Below, in pieces: positions 3,446-55,474 of a stretch of DNA of 64,000 nt. Under the pieces are notes generated by a model that was not told the origin of the DNA, did not search any database, and worked only from the letters and a program-made list of their open reading frames with translations. Made by a program: the position numbers and the translations under genes. Positions within the stretch are counted from its first letter, which is position 1. Every line of letters starts with the position of its first letter. The stretch comes from Arenicellales bacterium (GTDB taxonomy: Bacteria; Pseudomonadota; Gammaproteobacteria; Arenicellales; JAHEKD01), in the NCBI GenBank assembly GCA_965215945.1, contig CBDCFC010000047.1, forward strand, positions 20,643 through 84,642, given 5' to 3'.

Positions 3446-3522
3446 GCGCCCGTAGCTCAGTTGGATAGAGTATCTGGCTTCGAACCAGGTGGTCGGGAGT
3501 TCGAATCTCTCCGGGCGCGCCA
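3446..3522 (+). tRNA. tRNA-Arg (anticodon UCG)
   Basis: 77-nt cloverleaf read by hand: acceptor GCGCCCG/CGGGCGC, D-arm GCTCAGTTGGATAGAGT, anticodon loop CTTCGAA, T-arm GGGAGTTCGAATCTCTC, CCA end. Confidence 0.9.
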
Positions 3523-3946: not shown

Positions 3947-5470
3947 TCAACTTTTACTGACCAAATCGCCAAGAAACTTCGCAAACGGTACTATATTGCC
4001 GTTAACGCTTGCTTCTTCAAGGGACTGCATATAATCATTGTGCTGTTCTACCGGTATTACAGTCCACGGATATCCGCCCGAAGCTAGCATGGCATTCATC
4101 AAAAAACGTCCTATACGCCCGTTACCATCCATATAGGGATGAATATAGACAAAGACCCAGTATCCAAGTACGGCCCTGACACCTGCATGTTTTTCATTTC
4201 GTAACTGATCAAAAAAGTTAGGCATACAATCAAGCACAGCATCTTTGTTGAGTGGAACGTGCATTGAATTACGGATATAAACCTGGTTATTCCGGTAACC
4301 CGCAAGGTCGCTCACTTTCAAAATGCCTGCATCAACACTTGGGCCGAACAGAGCACGGTACCAGTCACCATGATCGTCAGAGACGACTTCTCCTGCATTT
4401 TGTTTTTCTAGGATTTTCTTGATACTTTCCTTAACCTCGTTAAAAGCCAGCCAATACCCACGGGCGGCCATCGCATCACGTTGTTCGTGGTCTGCCTGAT
4501 TATTATCGGGGTTCCATGATCCTTTCCTAACATGTTCAATGAATGCTTCACTAACTCGATATCCTTCAATAGACAAGGAATGGTAGGCATCTGTAACATA
4601 TATATCATCGACAGCTTTCAAGTATTTGTCTATATCCGTCGGAATACCAGGGGGGGACGGAAAGTGTTTGATGACGCTTTCACGCATGCTCTGCCAGCTC
4701 GCATATAAGCGATTAATATAGGCCGAACGTGTTCGTATCGGCAAGTTGATAGTTAAATCATATTCGAATGGATCGGATTCGTTTACAATGTAACCCGCAG
4801 CGCGCATTGCTTTTAATATGTTATCGGCTACCTTGCCACGTCCGATATTACGGAATGCCCCGGCAAGGCGACCAGCAATTGTGCTATGCCCGCCCTCTAA
4901 AAGTATAGTCAGCAACTCAGAAGCATCACGGATTGCTGTCAGGGCTGCTCGCGCATCAACCGGATATGAATGGAAAAATCTAACGCCGCTACCTACCAAT
5001 GCATGTGTTAGCTTAAATGTGCGTAAACCACCAACTTCTTCTAGGGCATCACGCTTAGCGACTTGGGCTCGAACTTCAAGAATAGATGTTCCATGTGTAA
5101 GATTAGTGATTTTATTACGGGCCTTCGGAGAGCGAATTAAAAGTTGCTTGGGTACAGTGCGGTTTCCGGCATGAATAAGGATTGACTGCTCAGGCGAAAG
5201 ACTCCACCCATCGCCAAAACGATGGTCCAGATAGGCAGCACAAAAATCCCAAAATGATGCGTACCAAGAGGTGGTTTCTCCATCACTTATCTCCTCTGGT
5301 CGTGACGGAATATACCAACCTTTAATGACTGGTTTAAGAAATCCATTTCGGGTGAGACGTTCTCGATGCCGTCTTGCCAATTCTTTAGATTGGATCGCTA
5401 CAACTCCTCTATCCTGGAGAGCTTTTAAAGCCTCTAAGGCTTCGGCGAGATGTTCTTGCGGACTGATCAC
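3947..5470 (-). CDS. Fic-domain protein (putative AMPylase) with an AbiEi-like N-terminal wHTH segment
   Basis: 507 aa with a GTG start preceded by the purine-rich GAGAAGAG. It has the Fic core HPYMDGNGRIGR, the inhibitory-helix motif SLSIEG ([ST]xxxE[GN]), and an N-terminus (GVVAIQSKELA...GFLKPVIKGWYIP) resembling AbiEi antitoxin N-domains. Confidence 0.85.
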   Translation of the reverse strand: MISPQEHLAEALEALKALQDRGVVAIQSKELARRHRERLTRNGFLKPVIKGWYIPSRPEEISDGETTSWYASFWDFCAAYLDHRFGDGWSLSPEQSILIHAGNRTVPKQLLIRSPKARNKITNLTHGTSILEVRAQVAKRDALEEVGGLRTFKLTHALVGSGVRFFHSYPVDARAALTAIRDASELLTILLEGGHSTIAGRLAGAFRNIGRGKVADNILKAMRAAGYIVNESDPFEYDLTINLPIRTRSAYINRLYASWQSMRESVIKHFPSPPGIPTDIDKYLKAVDDIYVTDAYHSLSIEGYRVSEAFIEHVRKGSWNPDNNQADHEQRDAMAARGYWLAFNEVKESIKKILEKQNAGEVVSDDHGDWYRALFGPSVDAGILKVSDLAGYRNNQVYIRNSMHVPLNKDAVLDCMPNFFDQLRNEKHAGVRAVLGYWVFVYIHPYMDGNGRIGRFLMNAMLASGGYPWTVIPVEQHNDYMQSLEEASVNGNIVPFAKFLGDLVSKS

Positions 5471-5489
5471 GATTAACTCTTCTCTTTTT

Positions 5490-5577
5490 AAAATTAGCTT
5501 ATTATGTTATATCAAAATTAGCTTATTGTGTAAAGTAAAATTAGCCTATTACGTGTTGTTTTAATTAGCTTATTATG
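5490..5577 (-). promoter_or_regulatory. Four phased 17-bp direct repeats (AAAATTAGCTTATTATG-like) over the Fic promoter region; putative operator array
   Basis: Copies start at 5490, 5514, 5537 and 5561, giving a spacing of 23-24 bp. They have 0-3 mismatches and lie 20-107 bp upstream of the Fic start codon. Confidence 0.45.
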
Positions 5578-5814
5578 CTCAATTTTGTCAGCTATAGTCC
5601 AAAGCTCCGTCTTAATATCAAGGGTTCAACAAGATAACTCAATCTACTGGGTCCAAGCCTAAGTCGGAGGAGAAAATACGTCGGTATCGTCGTAAGCGCA
5701 GACGTGACATGAGGCCAGCTCTAGATATAGCTCAGTTAGGTGATATTTCATTTGCCTATAGATAGATGTCCTGCTTTAAATCACCATCCAAAACAGTTAC
5801 AATCCCTCGCCTGC

Positions 5815-5891
5815 GCGCCCGTAGCTCAGTTGGATAGAGTACCTGGCTACGAACCAGGCGGTCGGGCGTTCGAATCGCTCCGGGCGCGCCA
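5815..5891 (+). tRNA. tRNA-Arg (anticodon ACG)
   Basis: 77-nt cloverleaf with the same acceptor and D arms as the first tRNA-Arg, anticodon loop CTACGAA, T-arm GGGCGTTCGAATCGCTC and a CCA end. Confidence 0.92.
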
Positions 5892-5900
5892 ATAAAATCA
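5844..5900 (+). repeat. attL-like 57-bp direct repeat (48 nt of the tRNA-Arg(ACG) 3' end plus 9 nt of flank)
   Basis: It matches 25786-25842 perfectly (TGGCTACGAACCAGGCGGTCGGGCGTTCGAATCGCTCCGGGCGCGCCAATAAAATCA). Confidence 0.75.
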
Positions 5901-6568
5901 AGTACTTACACCATTATTTTAATCCTAATCCAACTTCCTCTGGGTTTTATTTGGGTTAAAAACCGCTTAATTTCAATTCTTTTTATAACATTTTTTATCA
6001 CTTTGCCCCTATAAATACTAGCCACAATGGCCAAGGGCCAGGCCAAAAACCAGGTGGTCGAAACGGATGTATTTACATGTTTATTTACGGTGTATGAACG
6101 AGCAACTTCCAACTCGCCCTTAATACGCAATTCGGTCATTGTAAATAGCCAAAGACTACATAGTAAAACTCCAGAAACAGTCATTTTGGATTGTCAAAAA
6201 TTAATATTCAAATGCTCTTAAAAACGGATCGCGACCTCATCATTAATAGTGATGAATTCGTAATGATTTCTCGTATAGTTGTCTGCGATTGGTTTCAAAG
6301 TCGAAAAATTACTATGGTACAAACTTTTCCCAATGAATTTTTATGTATCAATAATTCGATGTAATACATATCAACTCTTTTGGGCGATGATCTGGGGAGG
6401 AGCCAGTTTGTTCAATAGTTTGGCTTTTTCCGAGAGAGTTCCTTCGCTACCTAATATATGGATTTACTAATATTTTCAGCGATTTATTCTAGTAACCCAG
6501 ACTATTAATCAACAACTTAGAGCAACTAATTGATTCGATTTTAAATTAAAAAATAATTTCTAATAGAT

Positions 6569-6584
6569 TGTGATTTTTATCACA
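6569..6584. promoter_or_regulatory. Perfect CRP-type palindrome TGTGA-N6-TCACA
   Basis: The sequence is TGTGATTTTTATCACA in the intergenic region, about 140 bp upstream of the first gene of the island operon. An extra TGTGA half-site lies at 6591. Confidence 0.45.
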
Positions 6585-6724
6585 GAATGTTGTGATGCCA
6601 TTGATTATCATCGCGTCGTTTTATTTCTGAACAAAACCTAATAATTTAACTTGACTGGGGTAGGTCGATGTTGATAATACCCCCCCCCAATACATTAATT
6701 TATTTTAATAGACAAGGTTTGACA

Positions 6725-7060
6725 ATGAAAAAAAGATTGCTAGCGGTGTTCATGGTGCTATCTAGTTTAAGTGTGCATGCCGATGTTTGGACACCTTATG
6801 TTTCTATTAGTCGATTTAAAAGTTACACACATAGCGATAACTTTTATGTGTTATCCGCAACCACATTGAGTGTGCCCGGTTGTTCGGACGCACAATGGTT
6901 GTATTTTAGAATTGATGAAAAAAATGGACAAACTGCCAGTCGGCTCAAGCAAGCGAAAGTGGTTGCTTTAGCCGCTCAAATGTCGGACAAGAAAATTAGG
7001 GCCTATGGTGATTGTTTTAATGCAAGTACATTTGAGGTCCATAGCTTTGACATTATGTGA
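6725..7060 (+). CDS. Small secreted protein of unknown function
   Basis: The start was trimmed to MKKRLLAVFMVLSSLSVHA/DV, a Sec signal peptide with an AxA-like cleavage site. The mature part has two Cys residues. It is the first gene of a tightly spaced same-strand cluster. Confidence 0.55.
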   Translation: MKKRLLAVFMVLSSLSVHADVWTPYVSISRFKSYTHSDNFYVLSATTLSVPGCSDAQWLYFRIDEKNGQTASRLKQAKVVALAAQMSDKKIRAYGDCFNASTFEVHSFDIM

Positions 7061-7084
7061 CGGGTCGAAGCGAGTTTGTACCCG

Positions 7085-7510
7085 ATGAAAAACTTACTAC
7101 GCATCCTTAGTATTTACCTGTTAGGAGTGTCGACAATTAATGCTGCAGATTCACTGCACGGTGCTAGCAATATTGTATTGTTACAGGCGGCTTGTCCTAC
7201 TGCCTGGGAAAAAGTCGACAAAGTATATGCAAAGCCGTCGTCCGTGCCCTGGGCGAATGAAACCGACCGGCAAAAGAACCTTGAATTTCAACGTAATTTT
7301 ATCTTGCAACAAACCAAGACCGGCTCACGGGATACAGATTCCGTCAGCCGGGATGTGATCACGGTATTAAGTGAATGTGTCAAACGCCATAATCTGGTGG
7401 TGCGGGCGGAATTCAATAAAACGATTGGTAAATTACCGGAGCTGAAAGAGCGTGTGGATATTACCCAGATTTTAATGCTGTTACTGTTGGATGATTCAGA
7501 TGAGAATTAA
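7085..7510 (+). CDS. Secreted protein of unknown function
   Basis: The start was trimmed to MKNLLRILSIYLLGVSTINA/AD (signal peptide). Its end overlaps the next gene. Confidence 0.55.
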   Translation: MKNLLRILSIYLLGVSTINAADSLHGASNIVLLQAACPTAWEKVDKVYAKPSSVPWANETDRQKNLEFQRNFILQQTKTGSRDTDSVSRDVITVLSECVKRHNLVVRAEFNKTIGKLPELKERVDITQILMLLLLDDSDEN

Positions 7511-7514
7511 TTAC

Positions 7515-7877
7515 ATGAATAAGGTGGGTTGTTTGGCGTTAACAGTGCTGTTAGGTGCCTGCGGCGGTGGGGGTTCAAGTAGTGGCGGTAGCAGTGCCGA
7601 TACCGATGTGACCCGCTGTATTCGTGCCGAATCTGTCGCTACGAATATAGATGTTTTCACCAGTAAAGCGCGATATACCAACACCTGCGATTTTGCCGTG
7701 AGTCTGGCTTACCGGACGGTTACCATAACAGTAGCAGGCCCAGTGACGGTAATACCGGGTGGTATGCATGAGGATTTGCTGGGTCGAATCGGTGCGGGCG
7801 AATTTATTGCTTGTCGCCCGCCGTCGCAGGGCACGAACAAAGGGGATTTGCCCAATCCAGAATTGGGCTGTACCTGA
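7515..7877 (+). CDS. Lipoprotein of unknown function
   Basis: MNKVGCLALTVLLGAC has the lipobox LGAC and is followed by a Gly/Ser linker (GGGGSSSGGSS). Confidence 0.6.
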   Translation: MNKVGCLALTVLLGACGGGGSSSGGSSADTDVTRCIRAESVATNIDVFTSKARYTNTCDFAVSLAYRTVTITVAGPVTVIPGGMHEDLLGRIGAGEFIACRPPSQGTNKGDLPNPELGCT

Positions 7878-7908
7878 TGATTATCGATGTAAAGTGAGTA
7901 CGGATTAA

Positions 7909-8472
7909 ATGAAAATAAAACTGTTAGTCATTATTTTAGCGGGTGCGTTTGTTGTTGCTAGTTCGTATTACGGGTGGCAAGCGAAACGGACCACTAAGGG
8001 TGCATTGGTACTCGATCAAAAGCATCAATATCTCGTTCGAACAACAGCAACTAATTCATCAGATGAAGACCGTTCAGTCACAGCGAAACCTGAACCTGAA
8101 ATTAAAAGCGATTTGGTCCAAAGTGGTACGGCCGAGTCATCCCTAGCAGAATTACCCATCGAACAGCGCAGCGAAAAACCGATCGATCACACGAGATACA
8201 AAGCCCAACACGCCTTGCCTGAAATACAGCCAGTCACGATGCCCAGTTCTGTGACGATGGCAAATTCACTGACATTGACGCAAATCAAAGCCCTTGACGT
8301 GGAGGATTTATCGCCGCCGACGATGATGAAAGGCGATGCATCCGGTGAAATCTCATCTGTAGGCGGTGCGTATTCAACCGATTCGGCTTATGAGGCACCA
8401 CTTAAAGTGATTGATTCGGTAAGCCGTCAAAGCGGAATTCCCGCCGCTGATTTGCAACAGGCTTTTGATTGA
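7909..8472 (+). CDS. N-terminally membrane-anchored protein, predicted to be largely disordered
   Basis: It has an N-terminal hydrophobic segment (KLLVIILAGAFVVASSYY), and the rest is low-complexity and Ser/Thr/Glu/Pro-rich. Its stop overlaps the next ORF. Confidence 0.5.
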   Translation: MKIKLLVIILAGAFVVASSYYGWQAKRTTKGALVLDQKHQYLVRTTATNSSDEDRSVTAKPEPEIKSDLVQSGTAESSLAELPIEQRSEKPIDHTRYKAQHALPEIQPVTMPSSVTMANSLTLTQIKALDVEDLSPPTMMKGDASGEISSVGGAYSTDSAYEAPLKVIDSVSRQSGIPAADLQQAFD

Positions 8473-8486
8473 GGGTTGATAAGCGT

Positions 8487-17856: not shown

Positions 17857-18207
17857 ATGCAGTTAAAAATTTTATTAGGTTTGATCCTGTCAGGGTTCGT
17901 TATTGCTTTAAGTGGTTGCGGAAATTCTAATGCTATAAACAATAAACTATCGTTGTCTGTTATTGATATGGACATAGAAGACATACAATTAAATACATGT
18001 AATTCCAGTATTAAATTAAATGCTAGTATAGGTAATCTAACTTATGAGCATACTGGTTGTTCAAACACTGATTATCATTTGGTGTTAATTTATAAGGACG
18101 GGTTCGTTGTAGATGAAAATTTTGGCTATATTCCTGGTGGTGAATCTGTTCATCATAAAATTATAGTTAGGGATAGAAAAATAGAATCATCAACAGAATC
18201 AAATTAG
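17857..18207 (+). CDS. Putative cognate Rhs immunity lipoprotein
   Basis: 116 aa, starting 2 nt after the Rhs stop. It has a lipobox (VIALSGC/GNS). Its position directly after the toxin is the standard toxin-immunity arrangement. Confidence 0.65.
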   Translation: MQLKILLGLILSGFVIALSGCGNSNAINNKLSLSVIDMDIEDIQLNTCNSSIKLNASIGNLTYEHTGCSNTDYHLVLIYKDGFVVDENFGYIPGGESVHHKIIVRDRKIESSTESN

Positions 18208-18474
18208 TTTAGAAAACACATGTAGTCAGATTTGATTTTTATTTGACTAAGTATGTGATGTAAAGTGCAAAACAGCTTTGAACTTTGCGCTATTTGCCAT
18301 TGAAATTATTGACAGACGAATGTTTAAATCCTGTCTATGCAAAAATTATTTAATGGCTTATAGACATTTTTTAAGTAACGTTCTTTTTAAATTAAAACTG
18401 CCAAGCTAACGCCTTGTTTGTGTTAGGGAAATTTACAATTTAGTTGATAAATTGCATTAGACCCACCCGTACAC

Positions 18475-19752
18475 ATGAGGGGCCGCGTGTATGATCCGGT
18501 ATTCGGGCGGTTCCTGTCACCTGATCCGCATATTCAAAGCCCGCTCAACAGCCAAAGCCTGAATCGCTACAGTTATGTCTTGAACAATCCGCTTAGTCTT
18601 ACTGATCCAAGCGGGTATTTCTTCAGCTGGTTTAAAAAGCTGTTTAAGAAGATTCTCAAAGTGATCAAGAAGATCATCAAGAAGATCGTGAAGATCATCA
18701 AAAAAGTCATCAAGGCGATAGAAAAAGTCATTACCAAGATCATCATGGCTTTGCCGGTGGAGATACGGATTATTGCGGCGATAGTAGTGGCGATCTATGC
18801 GCCTCAGATTGCCGGGGCGCTGCTCAATGCAGCCCCAGCGCTAACGAGTGGTATAATCAATGCAATTGGTTACGGTGCGTTTAAAGGTGCAGTCGGTGGA
18901 TTTTTGGCGGGCTTGATTACCACGGGTTCGTTTACAGGAGCCTTAATTGGTGGGGTCACAGGTGGGGCGTTTGGTGCGATAGGAAGTCATTTCAAGAATA
19001 TTGGCATCCAGAACCAAATGGCAGCAGGTGTGTCTCGCTATCAAGGTATCGCCAATGCCGGTTCAAATTTACTGAAAAATGGCCTGACACGATTGCAGTT
19101 TGCGACACAGTCACTCGCGCATGGTGTTGTTGGAGGATTAAATTCCAAGCTTAGTGGTGGTAGCTTTAGTAAAGGTATACTAACTGGGTTTTTAAACAAG
19201 ATTGCCAGCCCGATAGTATCAAGTACGAATTCATTTGTGAGTTTGGTGCGTCATACAGCCTTTGCGGGTATTGTAAGTAAAATAGCGGGTGGCAGTTTTA
19301 GTCAAGGTGCTAGAATTGGATTTATGGCAACGTTGTTTAATGAACTTGGCAATGGGAGAGGTGATAAGCTTTGGGCAGATACGAAGAAATGGTTTGGGGA
19401 ACATTTTCGATTTGGTGATACTGTAAACTTACGCGCAGGTGGTTTTGGTATTGAGCTTGATCATCGCTCAGCTAAATTATCAGATTATTCTAGTTCGGAG
19501 ATGACTAAAAATGGGAAAGTAATTAACTTTTCGGAATCTAGAACTAAGTTTGCTGTGGAAGCCTTTGGAACAGGCTTTGAGTTTGAAAATACTTATGATG
19601 CAAGTGGAAATTTAATATCACGCGATTTGAATTATAGGTTTTTTTACTATGATATAAATGCTCAAGCGTTCACTATTGATATTTCTATAGGATTGGGGCT
19701 TTCTTTTGATTACAAGATTCCAATTTATGATCCTATCGAACCCGCCTATTAA
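18475..19752 (+). CDS. Orphan Rhs C-terminal cassette 1 (end of Rhs core, conserved delivery module, alternative toxin tip)
   Basis: It begins at the conserved core sequence M(R)[16 protein letters not shown] and contains DPSGY plus the same Lys/Ile helix and GGSFS motifs. The last ~140 aa are unrelated to the main toxin. I see no clear Shine-Dalgarno upstream, so it may be silent. Confidence 0.75.
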
Positions 19753-19754
19753 GA

Positions 19755-20024
19755 ATGAATATGTTTGGTTTTCTTAATGACCTCAAATCTTCGCATGAAA
19801 TCTTATATTACGGTATATTGATTGGCTTGCTGATATTTGTTGCATATTGTATTTCTGAAATTATTGTTGACTTTCAAAATTTCAAAAACACCCATTGGTT
19901 TAAAGTTATTATTTATCTTCATTTGATAGCAGTGTGTTTGTTGATTATCCATCCCGCCTTATTATTCATTGCTCCTGTAGGTTATTTGGTTGTCAGGTTT
20001 TTATATGGTTATTTAAATAAGTAA
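19755..20024 (+). CDS. Putative immunity protein for orphan cassette 1 (small multi-pass membrane protein)
   Basis: 89 aa, starting 2 nt after the orphan stop. It has two or three hydrophobic segments (ILYYGILIGLLIFVAYCI, VIIYLHLIAVCLLII, LLFIAPVGYLVV). Confidence 0.6.
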   Translation: MNMFGFLNDLKSSHEILYYGILIGLLIFVAYCISEIIVDFQNFKNTHWFKVIIYLHLIAVCLLIIHPALLFIAPVGYLVVRFLYGYLNK

Positions 20025-20054
20025 AGTGTAGGCACAATAGGATAGAAAGGTTCG

Positions 20055-20513
20055 GTGAAAATTGGAGGTGGAGGAATTGGTGGGAAAGTAACTAGGGGTG
20101 TTATTGCAGGTACGATAGGAGGTATTGCATCAAATCTTATTGGTGGCTCGTTTTCGATGGGAGCCAGGTTGGGTGCAATGAGCCGGTTTTTTAATGATGA
20201 GCATGGATTTGCTAGAGTTAAAGATTTTGGTAAACAGGTTTGGAATGGAGTAAAGGAATGGTTTGCCAATGGTCCAGATGCGCATATTAACCGCAATGTA
20301 AATCAGAGTTGTCCAACTACTTGTGATGGAATTAACAATGGTGATTATTTTGAGGAAGGGCAGGCACCATTACATGGCGGTGATGAGGGTTATTTTACTT
20401 ATCGAGGGATAGGGCCGGAGAACCGGGGCTTTCAGTGTACTTACCAGACGCAGTGCAGTGGAAATCCAGCGGCTCCATTAATCCAGGATCCGGCTTATGC
20501 GGGTAACCGCTAA
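20055..20513 (+). pseudogene. Orphan Rhs-CT fragment 2 (only the last pre-toxin motif plus a third toxin tip, no immunity gene)
   Basis: It shares LIGGSFSMGARLGAMSRFFN with the main Rhs CT (LIGGSFSMGARLGAFSRFFN) and then diverges. It runs into the recombinase remnant. Confidence 0.5.
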
Positions 20514-20784
20514 AGGTAAGCGGGTGATTGTAGGGACATTAGGAGAGTGGGTGCGTAATTATTTGGATGAAGCGGAAATTACAAAGCCGGGTGCCTGCCA
20601 TTTGTTTAGGCATACGGTTGCGACCATGATGCTGGAAAACGGTGCCGACATTCGTTATATCCAGGAATTACTAGGGCATTCGAGTATTACCAGTACCCAA
20701 ATCTACACCAAAGTAACGATTAACAAATTAAAAGAAGTGTACAGCCGCACGCACCCAAAAGTAAATAAAAGGGGACGCCCATAA
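20497..20784 (+). pseudogene. Tyrosine recombinase/integrase, C-terminal remnant
   Basis: The 95-aa ORF carries the catalytic C-terminal signature [39 protein letters not shown] (HxxR...LLGH...Y). The N-terminal two-thirds of an integrase is absent. Confidence 0.7.
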
Positions 20785-21039
20785 GTCGTTAAAAGTCAAT
20801 AGTTCATAACGGTATATAAGGGTAACCCCTTGGCTCTCTATAAACAGAGTTTAATGAGCGCATCTGAATTTATGATTGTGAGCTACTTTTAGATAAAGTG
20901 CTTCAGTCACCCATCAGGATTAAGGCGATACACCGTTCAGGTGCTTCCCTTGGCCGTATTCAGTCCCATTAAATAATCAGTACCTTGAGATCACTAGTCA
21001 GTATGTGATGATGGATTGTCAGTCAGTCCCATTGTAGTT

Positions 21040-22416
21040 GACCTCAAGGGCACTTTATTAAACGCTATTTCGATGATACTGGCGGTGGATACTCAGAGGA
21101 CCGGGTTATTAACCATTCCCCTTTTGATCTTACCGCCAGATAAAACGGTCAGCCAAACGCTAAGTGAATATCGAAGGGTTGCTGGCGACTTAACATATGG
21201 TATACCGCCCGGGTTAATTTGTTGGCGATCGTTTTTTTCGCCACCATAACAGGTACTTTCTTAGACTTACGTTGATAATACCGTTTAATCGTAGGATTCC
21301 AGATGCAAGCATAATGTGCCGCTTCCACAAACGCCATGGCCAGATAGCGATTACCATTTTTGCTATTGCCTTTGGCTTTGAGTTTGCCGTTACTGATTTT
21401 ATTGGCCGGCACACACCGTGCATAAGAGGAATAATGACCCACTTTAGAGAATCGTTCGATCGGTCCTGTTTCCAGTAAGATGCTCATGCCCAGGATTTGA
21501 CCAATGCCCGGGACACTGGTGAGCAACTCGTAGTCAGTGCGGTCACATCGTGCTAACACAAATACCTCAATGGCTTTAATTTGCTGGCGTAGTAGGTGGA
21601 GTAAATGATGGGGTTGTTGGGCGGTAAACAACATCACCGGATCATTAAAATACTGATCTAAGTTCTGTTGATCGAGTTGTTTGATCTGATGGCTGGTTAA
21701 GCGTTTACCGGTATGTCGATTGATCAGACTCTGTAAACTTAATAGCTGAGCGGTGCTTTGTTTGACCAACAGTAGTCGCCGTCGTAATAAATCACGCACG
21801 GACCGCATGGCTTTTGGGTAAATATAACCGGTGGGTAAGATGCCTAGTCGAAGTAAATGGGCTAAGTGACGGGCATCACTGGCATCATCGGTGTACTTCA
21901 GACCGTTGTATTGCTGAATCGCTAAGGTATTGGCCAAGTGAACCGGATACCCTTGTTCGATTAAACCGTCCACTAGCCAGTACCAGTTGTAGGTGGATTC
22001 CACCACAATCCCTTGAATTTGTGATTGATAGGGTGCTAAATAACCAGTAATTACGTCAAGCTGGTTGGGCAGGCGTTTCTCACGGATTAACTGATCGGTT
22101 TCATTGATGATTGAAACCATACAATTATTGCTATGTAGGTCTATTCCGCAGTAAAGTGTCATAAGTCGTCTCCTCAGGTTTAGTTGACCTTCTACTGTAG
22201 TACACGGACGTGGCAGTAGAGAGGCGACTTATGATTTTCAGAGGGATTAAAAAGTAGGCAGTTGCTTACAATAAATGGTGTCCGACTCGATTTAATCTTC
22301 CAACTGTGATTTAGCAGGTCTGCCTCTAATAAAAGGTGCCGGAGGGATTATTTTTTAGGCACAGCAGGTGGTTTAGTCAGGCTGTTCAAATTTTAACCCC
22401 ATCCCCATTTACAGCC
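21040..22416 (-). mobile_element. IS110-family insertion sequence (ends approximate)
   Basis: It contains the transposase at 21149-22162. The right limit is set by the start of Rhs homology at 22417. The left limit is a guess, placed at a 10-bp motif (TAGTTGACCT) that also occurs at 22182. Confidence 0.5.
21149..22162 (-). CDS. IS110-family (DEDD) transposase
   Basis: 337 aa. The N-terminus CGIDLHSNN plus the central and C-terminal VPGIGQILGMSILLETG...SKNGNRYL pattern are typical of IS110-family recombinases. Confidence 0.9.
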   Translation of the reverse strand: MTLYCGIDLHSNNCMVSIINETDQLIREKRLPNQLDVITGYLAPYQSQIQGIVVESTYNWYWLVDGLIEQGYPVHLANTLAIQQYNGLKYTDDASDARHLAHLLRLGILPTGYIYPKAMRSVRDLLRRRLLLVKQSTAQLLSLQSLINRHTGKRLTSHQIKQLDQQNLDQYFNDPVMLFTAQQPHHLLHLLRQQIKAIEVFVLARCDRTDYELLTSVPGIGQILGMSILLETGPIERFSKVGHYSSYARCVPANKISNGKLKAKGNSKNGNRYLAMAFVEAAHYACIWNPTIKRYYQRKSKKVPVMVAKKTIANKLTRAVYHMLSRQQPFDIHLAFG

Positions 22417-25203
22417 CCCTTATTAGCCGGAACCTATATTAATGGCACAAATCCAGTGGCTTGGGAGCAAACGGCCATTGATAGTTATGATAATCCGAAT
22501 GTGGGGCCGTTCAAGTCCTCACCGATTCCCGGTGCTCAACTGATCTCATGGGATTCGGATGACAAGAACGGCCCGGAGAAGTGGTGGATCAATCACACTA
22601 CAGGGGAAATGGCAGCCGCCGAAAAATTGCCAATATACAAAAAACATAATTGCGATGAAGAAGAGGGCGATAACATTGACGATGACGAACTCTATGCACA
22701 GATTTCGCATGGTCAATTAGGTACAGACATTGCTGCCTTGCATAACAGTAAATTTTTTGAGCGTAATTACATTTATTACCAATACAAAGAGCTGGCCGAT
22801 CCGATCAATCAACTGGTGGAACAGGCGAACAGCACCTTTGAAACGGTCGAAACCCTGAAAACGGATTATGAAAACAGTGGTAGTACGTACTGGGAGGCAC
22901 TGGCCTATGCCCCGGACGGGCAGATCAAAAAAGCCAAATACGGCAACGGGGTGGAATCAAATTGGAAGTACGACCCGCGTGGTCGGACTTATGAGATTCA
23001 AGCCAAGAAAGGCAGCGGTGACTATTTACAGAACATGTTCTTTGACTACGACAACATCGGCAATCTCGTTTGGCGTGATGACCGGGTTAACCAATATGAT
23101 GAGCGATTCGAATACGATGTATTAAACCGTCTTGAATCGTCCACGTTAAGTGGCAGTGCGGTGGCGGAATATGCCAATCTGGGTCTTCAGAGTACGAATT
23201 ATGAATACGATGCGTTGGGTAATCTGACCTGTAAGTCGGATGTGGGTAATTACACTTACGGTCAGGGCATAGGCAGTGGTGCAGGTGTCCATGCGGTGGT
23301 CTCGACCAGCGGAACGGGCAATTCAAGTTGCAGCAGCAATGCTATCTACAGTTTTGCCCCGGCCAGTTTCAGTTATGACGATAACGGCAATCAGATCAGC
23401 GGCAACGGGCGTACGGTGACGTATTCACCGTTTAACAAGCCCACAAAAATCGTTAAAGGCGCGAATGTAAATGATTTTATCTACGGCCCGGAACGTCAAC
23501 TCATTTACCAGCGTGAAAAAATCCATGATGAGTACCGTGAAACCCGCTATGTGGGTGGGATATACGAGGAAACCATCAAGGACGGTAATGATAACAACGC
23601 TGAAGCGGTACATCATCTGACCATGGCCGGGCATACCATTGCGATATTAAAGACCAACACAGATCTAACCCAGGAGAAAAGCCGGCATTACCTGCACCAG
23701 GATCATCTTGATTCTGTGGTGATGATCACCGATCGTGATGGAAACGTGGTCGAGAAAAATCACTATGATCCGTTTGGTAAAAAGCGGTTAGCCATCATCG
23801 AGAATCCAACGATCTACGCCGCTGGATTCCTGCCGATCACGGATCGAAGCTTTACCGGACATAGGTATCTGCCCAAACAGGAATTGATTCACATGAAAGG
23901 GCGCGTCTATGATCCGGTGTTTGGTCGATTTCTCTCACCGGACCCGCACATACAGTCATCACTGAATAGTCAAAGCCTGAATCGCTACAGTTACGTGCTG
24001 AATAATCCACTCTCATTGGTTGATCCCAGTGGGTATTTCTTTAGCTGGTTTAAAAAGCTGTTCAAGAAAATTCTCAAGATTATCAAGAAGATCATCAAGA
24101 AGATCGTCAAGATCATCAAAAAGGTGATCAAGGCGATTGAGAAGGTGATTACTAAGATCATCATGGCCTTGCCGGTGGAGATACGGATCGTGGCGGCCAT
24201 AGTAGTGGCGATCTATGCGCCTCAGATCGCGGGGGCGATCTCCGGACTTCTTGGCGGAACTGCAACGGCACTGGGAACATTTTTTACGACTAAAATTGGC
24301 GTCGGTTTAGTTGGTGGATTCTTGTCTGGGTTAATTACAACAGGCTCATTTAAAGGGGCTTTAATTGGTGGGTTGACCGGAGCAGCGTTTGGTGCAGTTG
24401 GGGCTAGATTCAGCAATGTTGCCAGTAATAACATTAATACGGCAAGACTCGCGGGTCAAACACTTCAACAAGCTGGGCGTATTGCCAGTGGTGTGTTTAG
24501 GGGTTTAAGCTCGGGACAGGCATTCTTACAATCACTGGCGCATGGTATAGTGGGTGGATTGAATTCGAAACTGAGTGGCGGCAGTTTCAGCAAAGGTATC
24601 CTGACAGGATTTTTAAATAAGATTGCCAGTCCGATAGTATCTAGCACAAATTCATTTGTAAGTTTAGTTCGACATACACTATTTGCAGGAGTAGTGAGTA
24701 AGATAGCTGGAGGGAGTTTTAGTAGAGGGGCTAGAATAGGATTTTTGGCAACGTTGTTTAATGAACTTGGACATGGTAGAGGCGGGAAATTACTTGCAGA
24801 TACTAAGAAAACTATAGGCTCTACGTTTCAGGCAGTGAAACACTATTTTTTCGGTAACGGTGAATCCGTGGCATTAGATCAATATACTAAAGACTCGATA
24901 ATAAATTCAAACGATCAGAAATACCGTAGTCATCGAATACGAACTGGACAAACAACACGATTGTCCGGTAATTATGGAGTTGATGTCACAGACAAAATGT
25001 ACCATGTTGGAGATACAACTGTGAGCTATGATACGCAATGTGGAGTGAGTACATGCACTACAACATATACTGGTCAGGGAGATGGTTTTTGGGATCCGGT
25101 TATAGATGTAGATGGAATTGGGTCAGGAGGTGAAATTCCAGGCGGTACTCCGTATCCTTATGATCCTTTTTCATGGTCAGAAACATATCCAAATCCTTAT
25201 TAG
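22336..25203 (+). CDS. 5'-truncated Rhs paralogue (large orphan: part of the insert module, YD repeats, core, delivery module, alternative toxin tip)
   Basis: Rhs homology starts at 22417 (PLLAGTYINGTNP versus PLLPGKYINGENP in the main gene). The first 27 codons of the tracked ORF come from IS-flanking sequence. The last ~150 aa are unique (HYFFGNGESVAL...GDGFWDP...GGTPYPYDPF). Confidence 0.75.
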   Translation: MPEGLFFRHSRWFSQAVQILTPSPFTAPLLAGTYINGTNPVAWEQTAIDSYDNPNVGPFKSSPIPGAQLISWDSDDKNGPEKWWINHTTGEMAAAEKLPIYKKHNCDEEEGDNIDDDELYAQISHGQLGTDIAALHNSKFFERNYIYYQYKELADPINQLVEQANSTFETVETLKTDYENSGSTYWEALAYAPDGQIKKAKYGNGVESNWKYDPRGRTYEIQAKKGSGDYLQNMFFDYDNIGNLVWRDDRVNQYDERFEYDVLNRLESSTLSGSAVAEYANLGLQSTNYEYDALGNLTCKSDVGNYTYGQGIGSGAGVHAVVSTSGTGNSSCSSNAIYSFAPASFSYDDNGNQISGNGRTVTYSPFNKPTKIVKGANVNDFIYGPERQLIYQREKIHDEYRETRYVGGIYEETIKDGNDNNAEAVHHLTMAGHTIAILKTNTDLTQEKSRHYLHQDHLDSVVMITDRDGNVVEKNHYDPFGKKRLAIIENPTIYAAGFLPITDRSFTGHRYLPKQELIHMKGRVYDPVFGRFLSPDPHIQSSLNSQSLNRYSYVLNNPLSLVDPSGYFFSWFKKLFKKILKIIKKIIKKIVKIIKKVIKAIEKVITKIIMALPVEIRIVAAIVVAIYAPQIAGAISGLLGGTATALGTFFTTKIGVGLVGGFLSGLITTGSFKGALIGGLTGAAFGAVGARFSNVASNNINTARLAGQTLQQAGRIASGVFRGLSSGQAFLQSLAHGIVGGLNSKLSGGSFSKGILTGFLNKIASPIVSSTNSFVSLVRHTLFAGVVSKIAGGSFSRGARIGFLATLFNELGHGRGGKLLADTKKTIGSTFQAVKHYFFGNGESVALDQYTKDSIINSNDQKYRSHRIRTGQTTRLSGNYGVDVTDKMYHVGDTTVSYDTQCGVSTCTTTYTGQGDGFWDPVIDVDGIGSGGEIPGGTPYPYDPFSWSETYPNPY
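22549..23643 (+). repeat. Second copy of the 1,095-bp identical block (see 15188-16282)
   Basis: Same evidence as for the first copy, at an offset of 7,361 bp. Confidence 0.9.
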
Positions 25204-25218
25204 TTTTTAGGACGTGAA

Positions 25219-25656
25219 GTGGTTAATTTAAAGAAATTATTCTCATTAATATTTTTCACGTGTGTTGCCTTGATACAGGGTTGTTCTAGTAGTGAATTAC
25301 CTTATGAGTTGAAATTAACTTCAAACAGCAGTTATATGTGGATTGTTGATAAAGATGGTTGGGGTGTACTGACAGAAGGGAATAATACCTCAGATGATAA
25401 GTTAACAGTTGAAATCGTTAAGCTGAATAGGTTTTTTCTATTAGAAGATAGCCTTATTGTAGAGTGTTTACAAGATGGTGGTGATCTCATTTATGTTTTT
25501 CTTCAACCTTCATCAGGAGATAACTTATCTTTTCGAACACAACTTTTTACGAAAAAAGAATTTTATAATTTCCTTTCAATTAGTGAAAAATTTAATAACT
25601 TAGAGTTAGACTGGAAAGACTTTCGATTAAGTATATTTGAAAAAATAGGGATGTAA
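25219..25656 (+). CDS. Putative immunity lipoprotein for the large orphan
   Basis: 145 aa with a GTG start 15 nt after the orphan stop and AGGA upstream. It has a lipobox-like signal, FFTCVALIQGC/SSS. Confidence 0.6.
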   Translation: MVNLKKLFSLIFFTCVALIQGCSSSELPYELKLTSNSSYMWIVDKDGWGVLTEGNNTSDDKLTVEIVKLNRFFLLEDSLIVECLQDGGDLIYVFLQPSSGDNLSFRTQLFTKKEFYNFLSISEKFNNLELDWKDFRLSIFEKIGM

Positions 25657-25785
25657 TTATCGATGTGCTAAATTTGTGCCAAAGTAGTTGTAATTTACTG
25701 TTGTTTTCTGTCATTTACTGGCACATTTGAGTCTGGCAAGCGCCGCAAGTGTTTGATTTTAAAAGAAAGTAGTTTTAACTAAATG

Positions 25786-25842
25786 TGGCTACGAACCAGG
25801 CGGTCGGGCGTTCGAATCGCTCCGGGCGCGCCAATAAAATCA
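25786..25842 (+). repeat. attR-like 57-bp direct repeat (partial tRNA-Arg(ACG) 3' end plus flank)
   Basis: It matches 5844-5900 perfectly. No tRNA 5' half is present upstream of it. Confidence 0.75.
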
Positions 25843-25898
25843 GGAAGGACACAATAACTTACAGTAATTTTCTAGCATTTCATTAAACACCGTGTGCG

Positions 25899-25998
25899 GC
25901 TCTACAATATTAACGGGGGCTCTACAATATTAACGGGGGCTCCACAATATTAACGGGGGCTCTACAATATTAACGGGGGCTCTACAATATTAACGGGG
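25899..25998. repeat. Tandem repeat, 5 x 20 bp (GCTCTACAATATTAACGGGG)
   Basis: Five head-to-tail copies. The third copy has one T-to-C change. A partial sixth start (GCT) merges into the ISL3 end. Confidence 0.9.
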
Positions 25999-26009
25999 GC
26001 TGGCACTCA

Positions 26010-26150: not shown

Positions 26151-26619
26151 TTGGCACATCAGTGCAGTATCCACATTCTGTTATCAAAGCCACAACAAGT
26201 ACAGTAACCACTTATTCATAACAAAATTGACTACTCTAAATCCAAGAAAGCAGAATCTCAGTTACCCTATAATAAATCAGAGCTTGGAAAAGCTGTAAGC
26301 TTTAAAGGAAACTATTGTAGTTATACTCCAACTGTTTTAATGCTACAATCTGCCTCGATGATTTTTAGATAAGGGTGGGTAAAAACCATCCAAACAGGGG
26401 CTGGAGAAAGGCGGGATCAAACCCGCCTTAAGTCCTCGCCACCACAACAATTATTTCATCCCTTCAATTTCTCGTCTTAACTCTTTGTTTTAGAAGCGTA
26501 TTGTATTTGTTTGTCTATTTGAGGTTGAAATTATAAGTTGTCCTAAGTGGACTTATTAATCTGGTTTTATGGGGATGATTTGTCCATTTGACCAATATTG
26601 GTTGTGCTAAAATCGCTCA

Positions 26620-26730
26620 CCGGCAATGTCTCGTCTCCATGGTGACGGAAAGTTGTAAACCCGGTCAGATCCGGAAGGAAGCAGCCGTAGCAATTATTTT
26701 GGGTACCGGGTAAGGCGGGTCATTGCCACT
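26620..26730 (+). ncRNA. ffs: Signal recognition particle RNA (4.5S RNA)
   Basis: It contains the conserved domain IV sequence GGTCAGATCCGGAAGGAAGCAGCC. The terminal helix pairs GGCAATG with CATTGCC. An extended -10-like TGcTAAAAT lies at 26605-26613. It sits immediately upstream of dnaX. The ends are accurate to about +/-5 nt. Confidence 0.8.
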
Positions 26731-29344: not shown

Positions 29345-29738
29345 TCAGCAAGCTCAACTCTGCAAAAATAACAGTTGTTGGTTGCTGATCTGACATGTAA
29401 AAATTCAACTGTTTCCTGATTCAAGAGCTGCCGCGCCTTATTTTCAAACTCTTCGGTTCGTATAACTTCACCTGTACCTTCGATGATTCGTTCATTTTTA
29501 TTATCGTTCGCGTAAGCGACAGAATACCACGGGCTTGCGAACAATCTCCTGTGCTATTTGGGCCTGACAGGTCAGTGATGTACTTAATAGCCCGTTTTGA
29601 CGTACATGTTGAAACAGATCGGGATAACTGAAAGAACGGAGGAATTTGAGATGCCGGTGGATGAATGAGTGTATATAGATTGAACATCGCTCCTTAAATA
29701 AAGTGCGATGTTCATCGGATCAGTCCGCAAGGGCTTAC

Positions 29739-31122
29739 ATGGACACTGCCGATTTGCCACGTTAAATTAAATAAAAAGAAGATCAATTGCACACTTACAT
29801 CCGGCCTGTTATTGAAGTGGCGTGTTTCGACACTTCTGGCCCCAATGGAATACGCCGACAGGTTCCCTATCTGTTACTCGGAGTTTTACATCTCCAACCT
29901 TTTCGCCGGGGTTTCCCTGTCGCGGTCTGACCTGTTTTACCATCTATTTCACTTGTCGCAATCTGTCTGAGGGTTAATTATTAAGTACTTGATCATCGTT
30001 GTGTTGTTAAATTATCGAGCTATTGCTTGATAGGCTTGACCTGACGTTACTACACGCCATGCAATCCGTGCGGTTTTATTCGCCTGGGCCACACATGCCT
30101 TGTTGACATGAGTCCGATTCATTAATGCCGTGAGCCATGGTGATTTGTTTTCCATTCCAGCCCGTTGGCGGCGTTTCACACTGCAGATCACTGAGCGTGC
30201 ACCATGGACCAATAACATTCGCACATAGCCATCCCCTCGTTTGGATATGCCCAACAATCGCTGCTTACCCCCACTGGATGCCTGTCGAGGCACTAATCCC
30301 AAATAGGCCGCTAATTGACGGCCATTGTTAAATGCACGGCCATCACCGATCGTGCCGACCAACGCCGTTGCCGTTAATATACCAATCCCAGGTATGCGGG
30401 TTAATAATTGGCTCTTCTCACAGTGTTGGTGCCATCGCGTTATCGACTGTTCAATTTCATCAATCTTTTGTTGATACATGACATAGTGTTCGTATAAGTT
30501 TGACAGTAAGGTGCGCATAGCCGGATTCAGCTCATTTGACGCATCCGCCAATATATCCGCCATACGATGACCAATATGGTGGTTGCCCTGGGGGATTACG
30601 ATGCCAAATTCGCTTAATGTCCCCCGAATATGGTTGCTCAGCGCAATGCGTTGGGACATCAGCAATCGTCGTGAGTGGTGTAAATGCAGTATCGTTTGCT
30701 GATCTATAGATTTGACCGGTGCAAAACGCATGCTGGGTCGTTGTACCGCTTCGCAGATCCCTTGGGCATCATTTTGATCATTTTTATTTGATTTGATATA
30801 CGGGGCCACAAACTGTGGGGCCATGGCCCGTACGGTATGCCCAAGTTTAGCAAATTGACGGGCCCAGTAATGCATGGCACCACCGGCTTCAATCCCAATC
30901 AAACACGGTGATAGGTTGGCCAACAATGCAAGCAGCTGTGTACGGTTTACTTTCTTTTGTAAAACGACTTCACCGTGATCGTCTATCCCATGCAGTTGGA
31001 AACTATTTTTTGCCAAATCAATGCCTAATACGCTAATCTTGTTCATGGATACTGCCTCTTTTGTTAATTGAAATTTCAATTATGGCACTTTAGATGCCGA
31101 ATGTTATTGAGGCAGTGTCCAT
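29739..31122 (-). mobile_element. IS1111-like (IS110-family) insertion sequence, copy A, delimited by a 12-bp inverted repeat
   Basis: The perfect inverted repeat is ATGGACACTGCC (29739-29750) and GGCAGTGTCCAT (31111-31122). Copy B lies at an offset of 24,060 bp. Shared but more diverged sequence extends to 29497 and 31169. Confidence 0.65.
30012..31079 (-). CDS. IS110-family (DEDD) transposase, copy A
   Basis: 355 aa with LGIDLAKNSF at the N-terminus and IPGIGILTATALVGTIG...GISKRGDGYVR at the C-terminus. The protein is 100% identical to the ORF at 54072-55139. Confidence 0.92.
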   Translation of the reverse strand: MKFQLTKEAVSMNKISVLGIDLAKNSFQLHGIDDHGEVVLQKKVNRTQLLALLANLSPCLIGIEAGGAMHYWARQFAKLGHTVRAMAPQFVAPYIKSNKNDQNDAQGICEAVQRPSMRFAPVKSIDQQTILHLHHSRRLLMSQRIALSNHIRGTLSEFGIVIPQGNHHIGHRMADILADASNELNPAMRTLLSNLYEHYVMYQQKIDEIEQSITRWHQHCEKSQLLTRIPGIGILTATALVGTIGDGRAFNNGRQLAAYLGLVPRQASSGGKQRLLGISKRGDGYVRMLLVHGARSVICSVKRRQRAGMENKSPWLTALMNRTHVNKACVAQANKTARIAWRVVTSGQAYQAIAR

Positions 31123-31164
31123 TCCATTTGATGCGGTAACAACCCCGAGTTTACCCGGGGGAAT

Positions 31165-48664: not shown

Positions 48665-48751
48665 TGGTACCGAGGAAAGGACTTGAACCTTCACGGGGTT
48701 GCCCCCACTAGCACCTGAAGCTAGCGCGTCTACCAATTCCGCCACCTCGGC
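48665..48751 (-). tRNA. tRNA-Leu (anticodon CAG)
   Basis: 87-nt type II tRNA on the minus strand: GCCGAGGTGGCGGAATTGGTAGACGCGCTAGCTTCAGGTGCTAG..., with a long variable arm, the T-arm GGTTCAAGTCC and a CCA end. It is very similar to the E. coli leu(CAG) tRNAs. Confidence 0.92.
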
Positions 48752-48793
48752 ATGTGAGGCGGCTGACTCTACAATGACTTAATAGGGTTGTCA

Positions 48794-53558: not shown

Positions 53559-53798
53559 CTTTATTATCGTTCGCGTAAGCGACAGAATGCCACGGGCCGA
53601 GGAATCTCTTGTGCTGTTCAAACCTGACAGATCAGTGATGCACTTAATAGCCCGTTTTGACGTACATGTTGAAACAGATCGGGGTCACTGAAAGAACGGA
53701 GGAATTTGAGATGCCCGTGGATGAATGAGTGTATATAGGTTGAACATCGCTCCTTAAATAAAGTGCGATGTTCATCGGATCAGTCCGCAAGGGCTTAC

Positions 53799-55182: not shown

Positions 55183-55474
55183 TCCATTTGTTACGGTAAC
55201 AACCCCGGCTTTAGCCGGATTTTAGTAAACCTATTGAGGTTCCGGCACAAGCCCGGGGGAATCTATTCTTGCGAAAGAGCCAATCATCACACGTGGCTAA
55301 TAATATCGAACCTTGGCAGCCTAGACTTGTGATGATTTTACGGCGGAACAGCTTGAGATAAATGCCAGTGATCAGATCGTTGTGTTGAATCGGATCACTT
55401 ATTCGACTGGAAAATAAAATTATACAAATTAAAACACAAGAAAAGGCGGGGCGGATATATTCAGTTACAAACGT

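Follow-up and report, generated by a model that had tools for sequence, protein, structure and literature searches.

How did a block of Rhs toxin genes come to lie between an intact tRNA gene and a perfect copy of the 3' end of that gene, in DNA that holds no working integrase? We addressed this question for a 64-kb stretch of an Arenicellales genome (contig CBDCFC010000047.1, positions 20,643 to 84,642; hereafter the window, with coordinates counted from its first letter). In the window the 3' part of a tRNA-Arg(ACG) gene recurs about 20 kb downstream of the gene itself, and an earlier note had read the two copies as the ends of an integrase-driven island that was either immobilised or assembled by successive insertions. 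The analysis described here makes it probable that the duplication originated by integrase action and that the block is a horizontally acquired Rhs island, which obtained its composite and decayed make-up via successive integrations and deletions. Of the two options in the note, assembly by successive insertions fits best, since the left and right ends carry different arm repeats.

Repeat copies at the tRNA-Arg(ACG) gene

The window contains two intact tRNA-Arg genes on the plus strand, with anticodons TCG (3446-3522) and ACG (5815-5891), detected by ARAGORN and in agreement with Rfam. The two genes are 88.7% identical, including ca. 20 nt upstream. The ACG gene (Rfam score 63.3 bits) is the predicted integration target; the 25 nt preceding it are conserved with the locus of a relative (L098) and its last 48 nt belong to the left repeat copy. 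The left copy (5844-5900) and the right copy (25786-25842), both on the plus strand, are identical at 57 of 57 positions in direct orientation, and the match stops exactly at both edges. The E-value of 1.9e-22 found by self-BLAST excludes a chance origin. The first position of the repeat is tRNA nt 30, which is base three in the 5' strand of the anticodon stem; from there the repeat runs through the CCA end (nt 77) and continues with ATAAAATCA. In the left copy this sequence would form the attL core; the right copy is a promoterless tRNA-Arg(ACG) 3' fragment in which ARAGORN calls no tRNA. No third, degenerate copy was found inside the island by a low-stringency search, and the perfect direct duplication that the note had described, 48 nt of tRNA plus 9 nt, stands as an exact identity with only two copies.

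An intact tRNA gene combined with a displaced 3' fragment is the standard signature of a genomic island, and attachment sites centred on the anticodon form the commonest class in the Islander collection, with 2083 of 3919 islands (PMC4383910). The window has this arrangement. The intact gene lies at one end, the displaced direct fragment (48 nt + 9 nt, 100% identical) at the other, and the fragment boundary at nt 30 falls in the known crossover sublocation of the anticodon-centred class.

Public elements with the same core

Public element contigs that share the core support the supposition of the note that the repeat is built like an integrase att duplication. A metagenome scan with a query of 32 nt core plus flank returned one contig, L081 (60% GC). 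The viral contigs gave no match with that query, and with a query of the 32-nt tRNA part they yielded seven loci, six of which had the fragment only. A GenBank phage search gave generic tRNA-Arg matches only, and with the L081 integrase as query only distant relatives were found. Seven unrelated contigs (metagenomic L081; viral L087-L091 and L093) thus have a tRNA-Arg(ACG) 3' fragment but no complete tRNA. In these contigs its first base lies at tRNA nt 31-33, in the window at nt 30. One of them, L093, has 41% GC and an identical 45-nt core.

A Pfam-recognised tyrosine integrase lies within ca. 350 bp of the fragment in L081, L087, L088, L090 and L091, the match in L087 (25.7 bits) being just below the Pfam cut-off of 27.1. 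In L093 the open reading frame (ORF) adjoining the fragment weakly matches the L081 integrase by tblastn. The fragment-linked integrases are mutually ca. 25% identical or less, except for L088 and L090 (71%), and an Arm-DNA-bind_3 domain is present in those of L081, L088 and L090. As the same core occurs beside such divergent integrases, the 3' piece of tRNA-Arg(ACG) evidently serves as an attachment core that several integrase lineages use repeatedly. In L081 the fragment adjoins a P4-type integrase gene (Arm-DNA-bind_3, Phage_int_M, Phage_integrase), followed by AlpA, DUF3987 and a NotI-type restriction-modification pair. The repeat GGGTACAAGT is paired on both sides of the core, which identifies this site as an attP.

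The fragment in L081 is followed by the same 11 nt (ATAAAATCAAG) as the left junction in the window. The 9 extra nucleotides of the repeat had been taken for duplicated flank in the note. Their presence in an unrelated element of 60% GC points instead to the conserved start of a P' arm scaffold that would be common to the element family, and not to duplicated chromosome.

The public sites also bear on the alternative that the right copy is the stump of another tRNA-Arg(ACG) gene, truncated by an unrelated insertion without an integrase. The tRNA-Arg genes are indeed duplicated at this locus, given the similarity of the TCG and ACG genes, and gene duplication could give the identity over the 9-nt flank. 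The break at nt 30 is however within 1-3 nt of seven independent integrase-linked att sites, while a random break in 77 nt would hit this 4-nt zone in ca. 5-10% of cases. Furthermore, the fragment is flanked left and right by arm-type repeats at canonical spacing, as described below, and L098 has a single tRNA-Arg(ACG) in the 21.5 kb examined. Truncation of an extra gene is for these reasons disfavoured and seems very improbable.

Arm repeats at the two sites

Downstream of the core a common scaffold is found in the elements, at the left junction of the window and in the tRNA-Arg flanks of three relatives' loci. It reads (A)ATAAAATCAA(n)nACTTAC, appearing as ..AATCAA(A)GnACTTAC.., and is followed by a repeat pair with a period of 11-12 nt at ca. 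+35 to +71. The sequence of the repeat varies by element: GGTACAAGT in L081, CTGGGTAGCAA in L088, TGGCCACCA in L090, GGTACACGG in L098, TTCCGACA in L096 and TGTGCCA in L097. In the attP sites of L081, L087, L088 and L090 the repeat of the P' arm recurs on the P arm at -160 to -204, with an additional inverted copy at -110 in L087.

The left junction of the window (5892-5961, plus strand) aligns with L081, L087-L090 and the flanks of the relatives. It contains the motif ATAAAATCAAGTACTTAC and an 11-nt-period pair, TGGGTTTTATTTGGGTT, with TGGGTT at +50 and +61 after the tRNA end and no TGTGC. The 19-mer with TGGGTT is unique to this junction in the window, and no TGGGTT arms occur elsewhere in it. 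The segment resembles the P'-type arm of an element that we call type X, and from this layout the left junction is best described as a predicted B-core-P' site of type X.

The right site carries a different motif on both sides. Predicted integrase arm sites of P-arm type lie at 25664-25725, with TGTGCTA at 25664 and TGTGCCA at 25675 in direct orientation and TGGCACA at 25719 inverted. Relative to the core, TGTGC(T/C)A is found at -170, -159, -115 (inverted) and +60, and the P-arm positions match those in the attP sites of L087, L088 and L090. The 19-mer TGTGCTAAATTTGTGCCAA (25664-25682) is identical at 17 of 19 positions to the P' pair of L097 and is the sole match in the 64-kb window, versus 0.02 expected by chance. 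The flank at 25843-25899 (plus strand) is homologous to the tRNA-Arg(TCG) flank of L097 (45 of 54 ungapped columns, with an 11-nt insertion, ..GGAAGGACAC..; BLAST identity 76.5% over 115 nt). It looks like a P'-type flank that is truncated after the first arm site, the TGTGC at +60, and in place of the remaining P' arm five tandem copies of the 20-mer CTCTACAATATTAACGGGGG are present (25898-26001, plus strand). The right site is thus probably a P-core-P' site of a related type Y, as would be found at a tandem-element junction or in an unrecombined attP, rather than the attR of X.

If the two copies were the ends of one element, attL and attR should carry the same arm repeat, as the four control attP sites do on both arms. 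The window has TGGGTT on the left arm and TGTGCCA-type repeats on both arms at the right. The repeats are therefore probably not the attL and attR of one element, in disagreement with the note, and the mismatched ends make it most likely that the island arose from successive integrations and deletions.

A simpler explanation would be a single island with genuine attL and attR sites, formed by one integration of one element into tRNA-Arg(ACG), with later deletion of the integrase module and a native right flank. There are only two att copies and both are perfect, which is as expected for such an island. The sequences TCAGGAAGGACAC and CTCTACAATATTAACGGGGG are common to the right flank and to the flank of the paralogous tRNA-Arg(TCG) gene, which could mean that both flanks are native, and the agreement of the right flank with L097 (83% of ungapped columns) is close to the level of orthologous chromosomal DNA between these genomes (77-80%). 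These points have to be weighed against the mismatch between the left P' arm (TGGGTT pair) and the right P arm (TGTGCCA pair), when four validated attP sites have the same repeat on both arms. The right flank moreover has the canonical P' layout, with the arm site where L097, L098 and L096 predict it, and in relatives ffs-dnaX, which follows the island here, is not located beside tRNA-Arg. We consider a single integration unlikely, with some chance left to it, and prefer successive integrations.

The sequence TCAGGAAGGACAC occurs at 3542 and 25840, and CTCTACAATATTAACGGGGG occurs once at 3585 and as the five tandem copies at 25900-25999. No other place in the window has either sequence: both lie downstream of tRNA-Arg(TCG) and, in identical order, downstream of the right att copy. 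In the right flank TCAGGAAGGACAC corresponds to the 11-nt insertion relative to L097. A small mobile repeat, gene conversion or a binding-site array are candidate origins for these sequences.

The recombinase remnant and the missing integrase

The only recombinase that the note had recognised, a 95-aa C-terminal stump in the middle of the island, was confirmed as such (20497-20784, plus strand). It covers positions 101-169 of the 172 of Pfam model PF00589 and positions 241-330 of the 365 of the NCBIfam XerC model PRK01287. In NCBIfam its best matches are to models of XerC and XerD and not to the P4-type integrase model, which the L081 integrase does match. There is a stop in the same frame five codons upstream of the Met, and in comparison with homologues ca. 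35 aa are missing between the GKGxK strand and the HxxR box. With such a 5' truncation and internal deletion, the recombinase is dead.

As a candidate for the island's own integrase the stump was rejected. It is Xer-class and lies on the strand of the tRNA, whereas every tRNA-Arg-linked integrase examined is on the strand opposite the tRNA fragment, and its similarity to the Xer-like L091 integrase is only generic (32-36% over ca. 50-60 aa). It is thus unlikely to be a remnant of the island integrase, and we conclude that it is debris from some other mobile DNA. The stump lies where the left half of the island meets the right half.

Short Xer-like fragments of this kind were also found elsewhere. 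The best 120 database relatives listed for the stump (P0002-P0120) are all 73-167 aa in length, several of them on large contigs. Two such loci that were examined (P0014 and P0016; among L082-L084) have IS21 or IS3 genes nearby and no link to Rhs. That only short relatives were found may be an effect of the search method, or the recombinase family may often survive as C-terminal fragments. Exact-protein look-ups of dnaX, ybaB, the stump and the IS110 transposase gave no match in the position index.

Next to the stump an IS110-family insertion sequence (IS) is located at 20785-22335 on the minus strand, with approximate ends. The transposase gene (21149-22162) matches DEDD_Tnp_IS110 and Transposase_20 in Pfam and transpos_IS110 in NCBIfam (177 bits). 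The element is present as a single copy in the window according to self-BLAST, and no repeats that fix its ends were found.

The absence of a working integrase, with the dead stump as the single PF00589 match, agrees with the note. No other tyrosine recombinase and no excisionase were detected in the 64-kb window by Pfam searches of the island and most flanking ORFs, except those at ca. 31.5-40.2 kb, and by tblastn with the seven tRNA-Arg-linked integrases. The window likewise contained no Arm-DNA-bind_3 integrase gene and no remnants of a P4-like integrase. Xer-class hits are left out of the island definition used in Islander (PMC4383910), and a tyrosine integrase that is neither of Xer nor of integron type was not found inside the island. 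The block instead has att sites at both ends and lacks recombination and transfer genes, as is typical of cis-mobilizable elements (CIMEs). Today it would be incapable of self-excision and would form a fixed toxin/immunity locus.

The block could still be mobile as a non-autonomous, cis-mobilizable element if the integrase of a related element, located elsewhere or newly arrived alongside, recombined the cores. The cores are perfect over 57 bp versus 90% identity for the internal rhs duplicate, a hint that the event was recent or that the cores are maintained; elements that target the exact core also exist, including L093. The window however offers no integrase or excisionase besides the stump among the searched ORFs, the mismatched arms at the ends should hamper an excisive complex, and the single metagenome scan that was done yielded no circular or empty form. 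Continued mobility is accordingly given a low probability. With both cores intact, excision in trans would be possible in principle, though improbable given the mismatched arms. The predicted junctions after excision are tRNA-Arg(ACG) joined to ATAAAATCAGGAAGGACACAATAACTTACAG, and a circle in which 25785 is connected to 5901 across one core.

We regard it as similarly doubtful that the locus is a hitchhiking toxin arsenal. In that case the perfect cores would let any related element landing beside the block fuse with it by accretion and carry the rhs/immunity array to a new host. If true, the modular P' arms, with a conserved scaffold and swappable 11-nt-period pairs at +47 to +61, would represent interchangeable integrase specificities at one tRNA site.

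Cargo between the repeats

The inventory in the note was accurate. ORFs of secreted type, a Rhs toxin, orphan toxin/immunity modules, the IS110 element and the recombinase remnant are all present, and the DNA between the copies is accessory, with Rhs polymorphic-toxin genes as cargo. At the left end ca. 770 bp of AT-rich non-coding DNA precedes the first small ORF. Five small ORFs follow upstream of rhs (6668-9284, plus strand); their translations have signal-peptide or lipobox/lipoprotein-like N-termini, and no family match was found in Pfam or NCBIfam.

The full-length rhs gene (9365-17854, plus strand) encodes 2829 aa and was identified from its translation, Pfam matches and similarity to the PDB sequences of Rhs effectors (8qja, 7q97) and Tse5. 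The protein consists, in order, of a signal peptide, FG-GAP repeats, TcdB_toxin_midN, RHS repeats (PF05593, 73 bits), the DPSGY core end, a Lys/Ile-rich and Gly-rich segment, and a variable C-terminus. A gene for a lipoprotein-like protein of 116 aa follows directly after the stop codon (17857-18207, plus strand); its position makes it a candidate immunity gene, and it has no family match.

Two orphan fragments come next. Orphan module 1 (18475-20024, plus strand) comprises a rhs C-terminal ORF of 425 aa (18475-19752), which matches TIGR03696 (Rhs_assc_core), and an 89-aa membrane protein as candidate immunity protein. It starts inside the Rhs core end, 18469-18814 being 82% identical at the nucleotide level to 16526-16871. 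Orphan toxin fragment 2 (20055-20513, plus strand), recognised from its translation, is 3'-truncated and without an immunity gene. It has the pre-toxin segment GGSFSMGARLGA...RFFN in common with the main Rhs protein (76% nucleotide identity of 20116-20195 to 17349-17428) and loses its 3' end at ca. 20500, where it joins the integrase stump.

To the right of the IS110 element lies a 5'-truncated second rhs copy (22336-25203, plus strand), an ORF of 955 aa with RHS_repeat and TIGR03696 matches and a putative C-terminal toxin of its own. Its nucleotides 22477-24401 are 90.3% identical to 15116-17052. The adjoining lipoprotein-like ORF of 145 aa (25219-25656, plus strand) is, by position and translation, the candidate immunity gene of this copy and ends 129 bp before the right repeat. 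The orphan fragments are thus homologous to the 3' core of the main rhs gene, with 82% and 90% nucleotide matches. Past the conserved cores the Rhs C-termini diverge, each being trailed by a small ORF, and no toxin or immunity family was recognised with Pfam or NCBIfam.

The DPSGY motif is present in all three Rhs copies and is followed in each by a conserved segment of ca. 300 aa (positions 16750-17400, 18610-19300 and 24030-24700). This segment consists of a Lys/Ile-rich helix and Gly-rich hydrophobic stretches, after which the variable toxin starts, and has no Pfam match. In most described Rhs proteins the toxin directly follows the core, and the additional segment may therefore be a membrane-insertion or translocation module.

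The GC content of the island is 44.5% compared to 42.1% for the rest of the window, with 47-48% in the rhs cores and ca. 40% in the toxin/immunity ends. The tetranucleotide distance peaks at 0.32 over the rhs core against a background of 0.13-0.2. The comparison inside and outside the island that the note had proposed thus revealed a moderately atypical composition over the rhs core, which is the usual Rhs pattern and gives weak support for a foreign origin.

Relatives and the search for an empty site

In the protein collection the source genome stands as a singleton, on a contig of 169.7 kb, which leaves no strain-level empty site. The nearest genomes found by protein searches had 79-84% identity for dnaX and 93-94% amino acid identity for fumarase; the nearest named fumarase relatives, at ca. 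82%, were metagenome-assembled genomes of Competibacteraceae. Assemblies of relatives include ERZ25767047 (contig ctg36945), ERZ25070167 (with a contig of 5.05 Mb) and GCA_028284225.1. When genome contigs were searched with dnaX, the relatives among the matches listed were at most ca. 63% identical, mostly 45-50%, and the neighbouring tRNA genes were mostly tRNA-Ser(GGA).

In relatives guaA-tadA-tRNA-Ser(GGA) precede ffs-dnaX-ybaB-recR, with 578 nt between them in L094 and an 8.7-kb IS-rich insert in L095. BLAST against these two loci showed that synteny with the window resumes at 26335 (26335-26724, plus strand), upstream of the signal recognition particle RNA gene ffs (26628-26724; Rfam RF00169, 57.8 bits), which lies upstream of dnaX-ybaB-recR. 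The boundary is sharp, corresponds to L094 position 9567 and L095 position 9470, and is ca. 290 nt upstream of ffs. What lies to its left differs: L094 has 288 nt and tRNA-Ser(GGA), L095 has 8.7 kb with IS and accessory genes, and the window has the tRNA-Arg island. It looks like a second hot spot or the breakpoint of a large rearrangement.

On the 5.05-Mb contig of a relative the fumarase/tRNA-Arg locus is more than 3 Mb away from ffs-dnaX, which suggests that the window genome or its relatives rearranged just right of the island. Due to this rearrangement the data examined contain no simple empty site. The note had named relatives with the same 20 kb, or with an intact third tRNA-Arg, as findings that would speak against an island; no relative examined had either, and an empty site was not found among them. 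The empty site that the note had predicted, tRNA-Arg followed by ...AATAAAATCAGGAAGGACAC, is an unlikely ancestral state. The flank is element-like, the relatives have tRNA-Ser(GGA) before ffs-dnaX, and homology starts only from 26335.

The relatives' tRNA-Arg loci carry other DNA, the Rhs island being absent from L096, L097 and L098. In L096 the end of an integrase gene is 14 nt away from tRNA-Arg(TCG), and beyond it come another integrase gene and SIR2 (SIR2_2) and DUF87 genes; the SIR2_2/DUF87 island looks defence-like. Contig L097 is a low-coverage variant from the same sample as L096 with an identical fumarase protein and a different flank at tRNA-Arg(TCG), a TGTGCCA-type P' arm. The pair (L096, 1-8400; L097, 1-330) appears to represent strain-level turnover at tRNA-Arg(TCG). 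In L098 tRNA-Arg(ACG) is followed by an arm of the GGTACACGG type and a YadA_head/Peptidase_S74 gene. A contig of one relative ends exactly at the 3' end of tRNA-Arg(TCG). Because close relatives carry other elements there, the tRNA-Arg genes are, on the evidence of these contigs, active hot spots.

The interval between the two tRNA-Arg genes of the window harbours a gene for a 507-aa Fic-domain protein on the minus strand (3947-5600), with four AAATTAGCTTATTATG-like boxes just upstream of its start (ca. 5490-5580). In L098 the corresponding interval has 7.7 kb of metabolic genes and RecQ instead of Fic, and is thus variable as well.

Proposed history of the island

Elements of this kind bring the 3' part of the tRNA with them, so that integration restores the gene at one junction and leaves a promoterless 3' fragment at the other. 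In the history that we favour both repeat copies would be products of site-specific recombination by tyrosine integrases in the anticodon-loop region of tRNA-Arg(ACG), and the 19.9 kb between the copies would be horizontally acquired DNA. At least two related elements, and probably three, would have integrated in succession at this gene in a process of tandem accretion. Deletions would then have fused parts of two elements, on the left P'X with the small ORFs, rhs and orphans, on the right a 5'-truncated rhs gene with its immunity gene and PY, the same deletions removing the internal att junction or junctions and all int/xis genes. The IS110 element would have inserted, and together with the Xer-like stump it may mark the fusion zone at 20.5-22.4 kb. 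A rearrangement would have joined the locus to ffs-dnaX, with a remnant P'Y and the tandem 20-mer on the right. The 955-aa rhs copy could then derive from a second rhs gene, that of the neighbouring element, by truncation and need not be a classical displaced C-terminus.

Several points weigh against this history. Neither an empty site nor an excised form was found, with the source genome a singleton in the protein collection and the relatives rearranged at the locus. The compositional deviation could stem from the composition of Rhs repeats rather than from foreign origin. The arm-site argument is based on short sequence motifs, though their positions and the 17/19 match with L097 make chance unlikely. 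The L097 flank was taken as the P' arm of an element from its geometry; were it native chromosome instead, a native B' flank would lie on the right of the window site, and the simple attL/attR explanation would gain in weight.

Comparison to known systems

Accretion and mobilization of CIMEs have been described for ICESt1 and ICESt3 of Streptococcus thermophilus. The window block resembles CIMEs in being flanked by att sites without recombination genes and in showing signs of tandem accretion at one tRNA-type site followed by deletion. It differs in that no cognate autonomous element was identified in this genome, in phylum and integrase family, and in that mobilization is putative. With the P4-like element L081 the block shares the tRNA-Arg(ACG) core, the 11 nt after it and the P' layout with an 11-12-nt-period pair. 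However no homologue of an L081 gene is present in the window, which lacks an integrase, AlpA and a replication module.

The tRNA gene islands in Islander (PMC4383910) have an intact tRNA at one end and a displaced direct 3' fragment at the other, starting in the anticodon stem-loop, and are similar to the present block in size (ca. 20 kb) and accessory cargo. The differences are the absence of a qualifying integrase from the window, which has the Xer-class stump only, and the mismatched arm repeats at the ends. Rhs loci with orphan arrays in E. coli, Salmonella and Dickeya (PMC3150448, PMC7043789) likewise have a full rhs gene followed by small immunity-type genes and by rhs C-terminal fragments that keep homology to the 3' core. 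IS elements have been reported in the orphan arrays of related contact-dependent inhibition toxin systems, and the array in the window also contains one. Unlike these loci, the window encodes a Rhs protein with a Sec signal peptide and a TcB-like FG-GAP/TcdB_midN front, not a PAAR/VgrG-linked N-terminus of the type VI secretion system, and has ca. 300 aa between DPSGY and the toxins. A further difference may be the nature of the 955-aa copy, as the truncated remainder of a second rhs gene in a neighbouring element instead of a displaced C-terminus.

The block thus falls inside known kinds. It is a decayed tRNA-linked island with an ordinary fate and follows established principles; what it usefully adds is evidence from arm-repeat geometry for a composite origin. 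The locus provides a case in which a toxin/immunity arsenal becomes fixed in the chromosome as elements pile up at a tRNA gene, decay strips the mobility genes and the att scars stay. For annotation it carries the caution that what lies between perfect tRNA-fragment repeats is not necessarily one element. A composite origin can be exposed without an empty site if the arm repeats are compared to the real attP sites of public element contigs. The locus also adds a Rhs system with Sec signal, TcB-like front and several toxin modules to a poorly sampled gammaproteobacterial lineage.

Other features of the window

Two IS110-family elements of 1.66 kb that are 98.5% identical and encode a transposase of 355 aa are located at 29497-31158 and 53560-55218. 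They differ from the IS110 element in the island, and ends related to this pair occur in the relative L095. A gene for RNase R (OB_RNB, CSD2, RNB) is split into overlapping ORFs at 48788-49666 and 49542-50591, a sign of a frameshift, of a pseudogene or of an error in sequencing. Another Fic gene (DUF4172-Fic, 47029-48138) is found next to tRNA-Leu(CAG) at 48665-48751.

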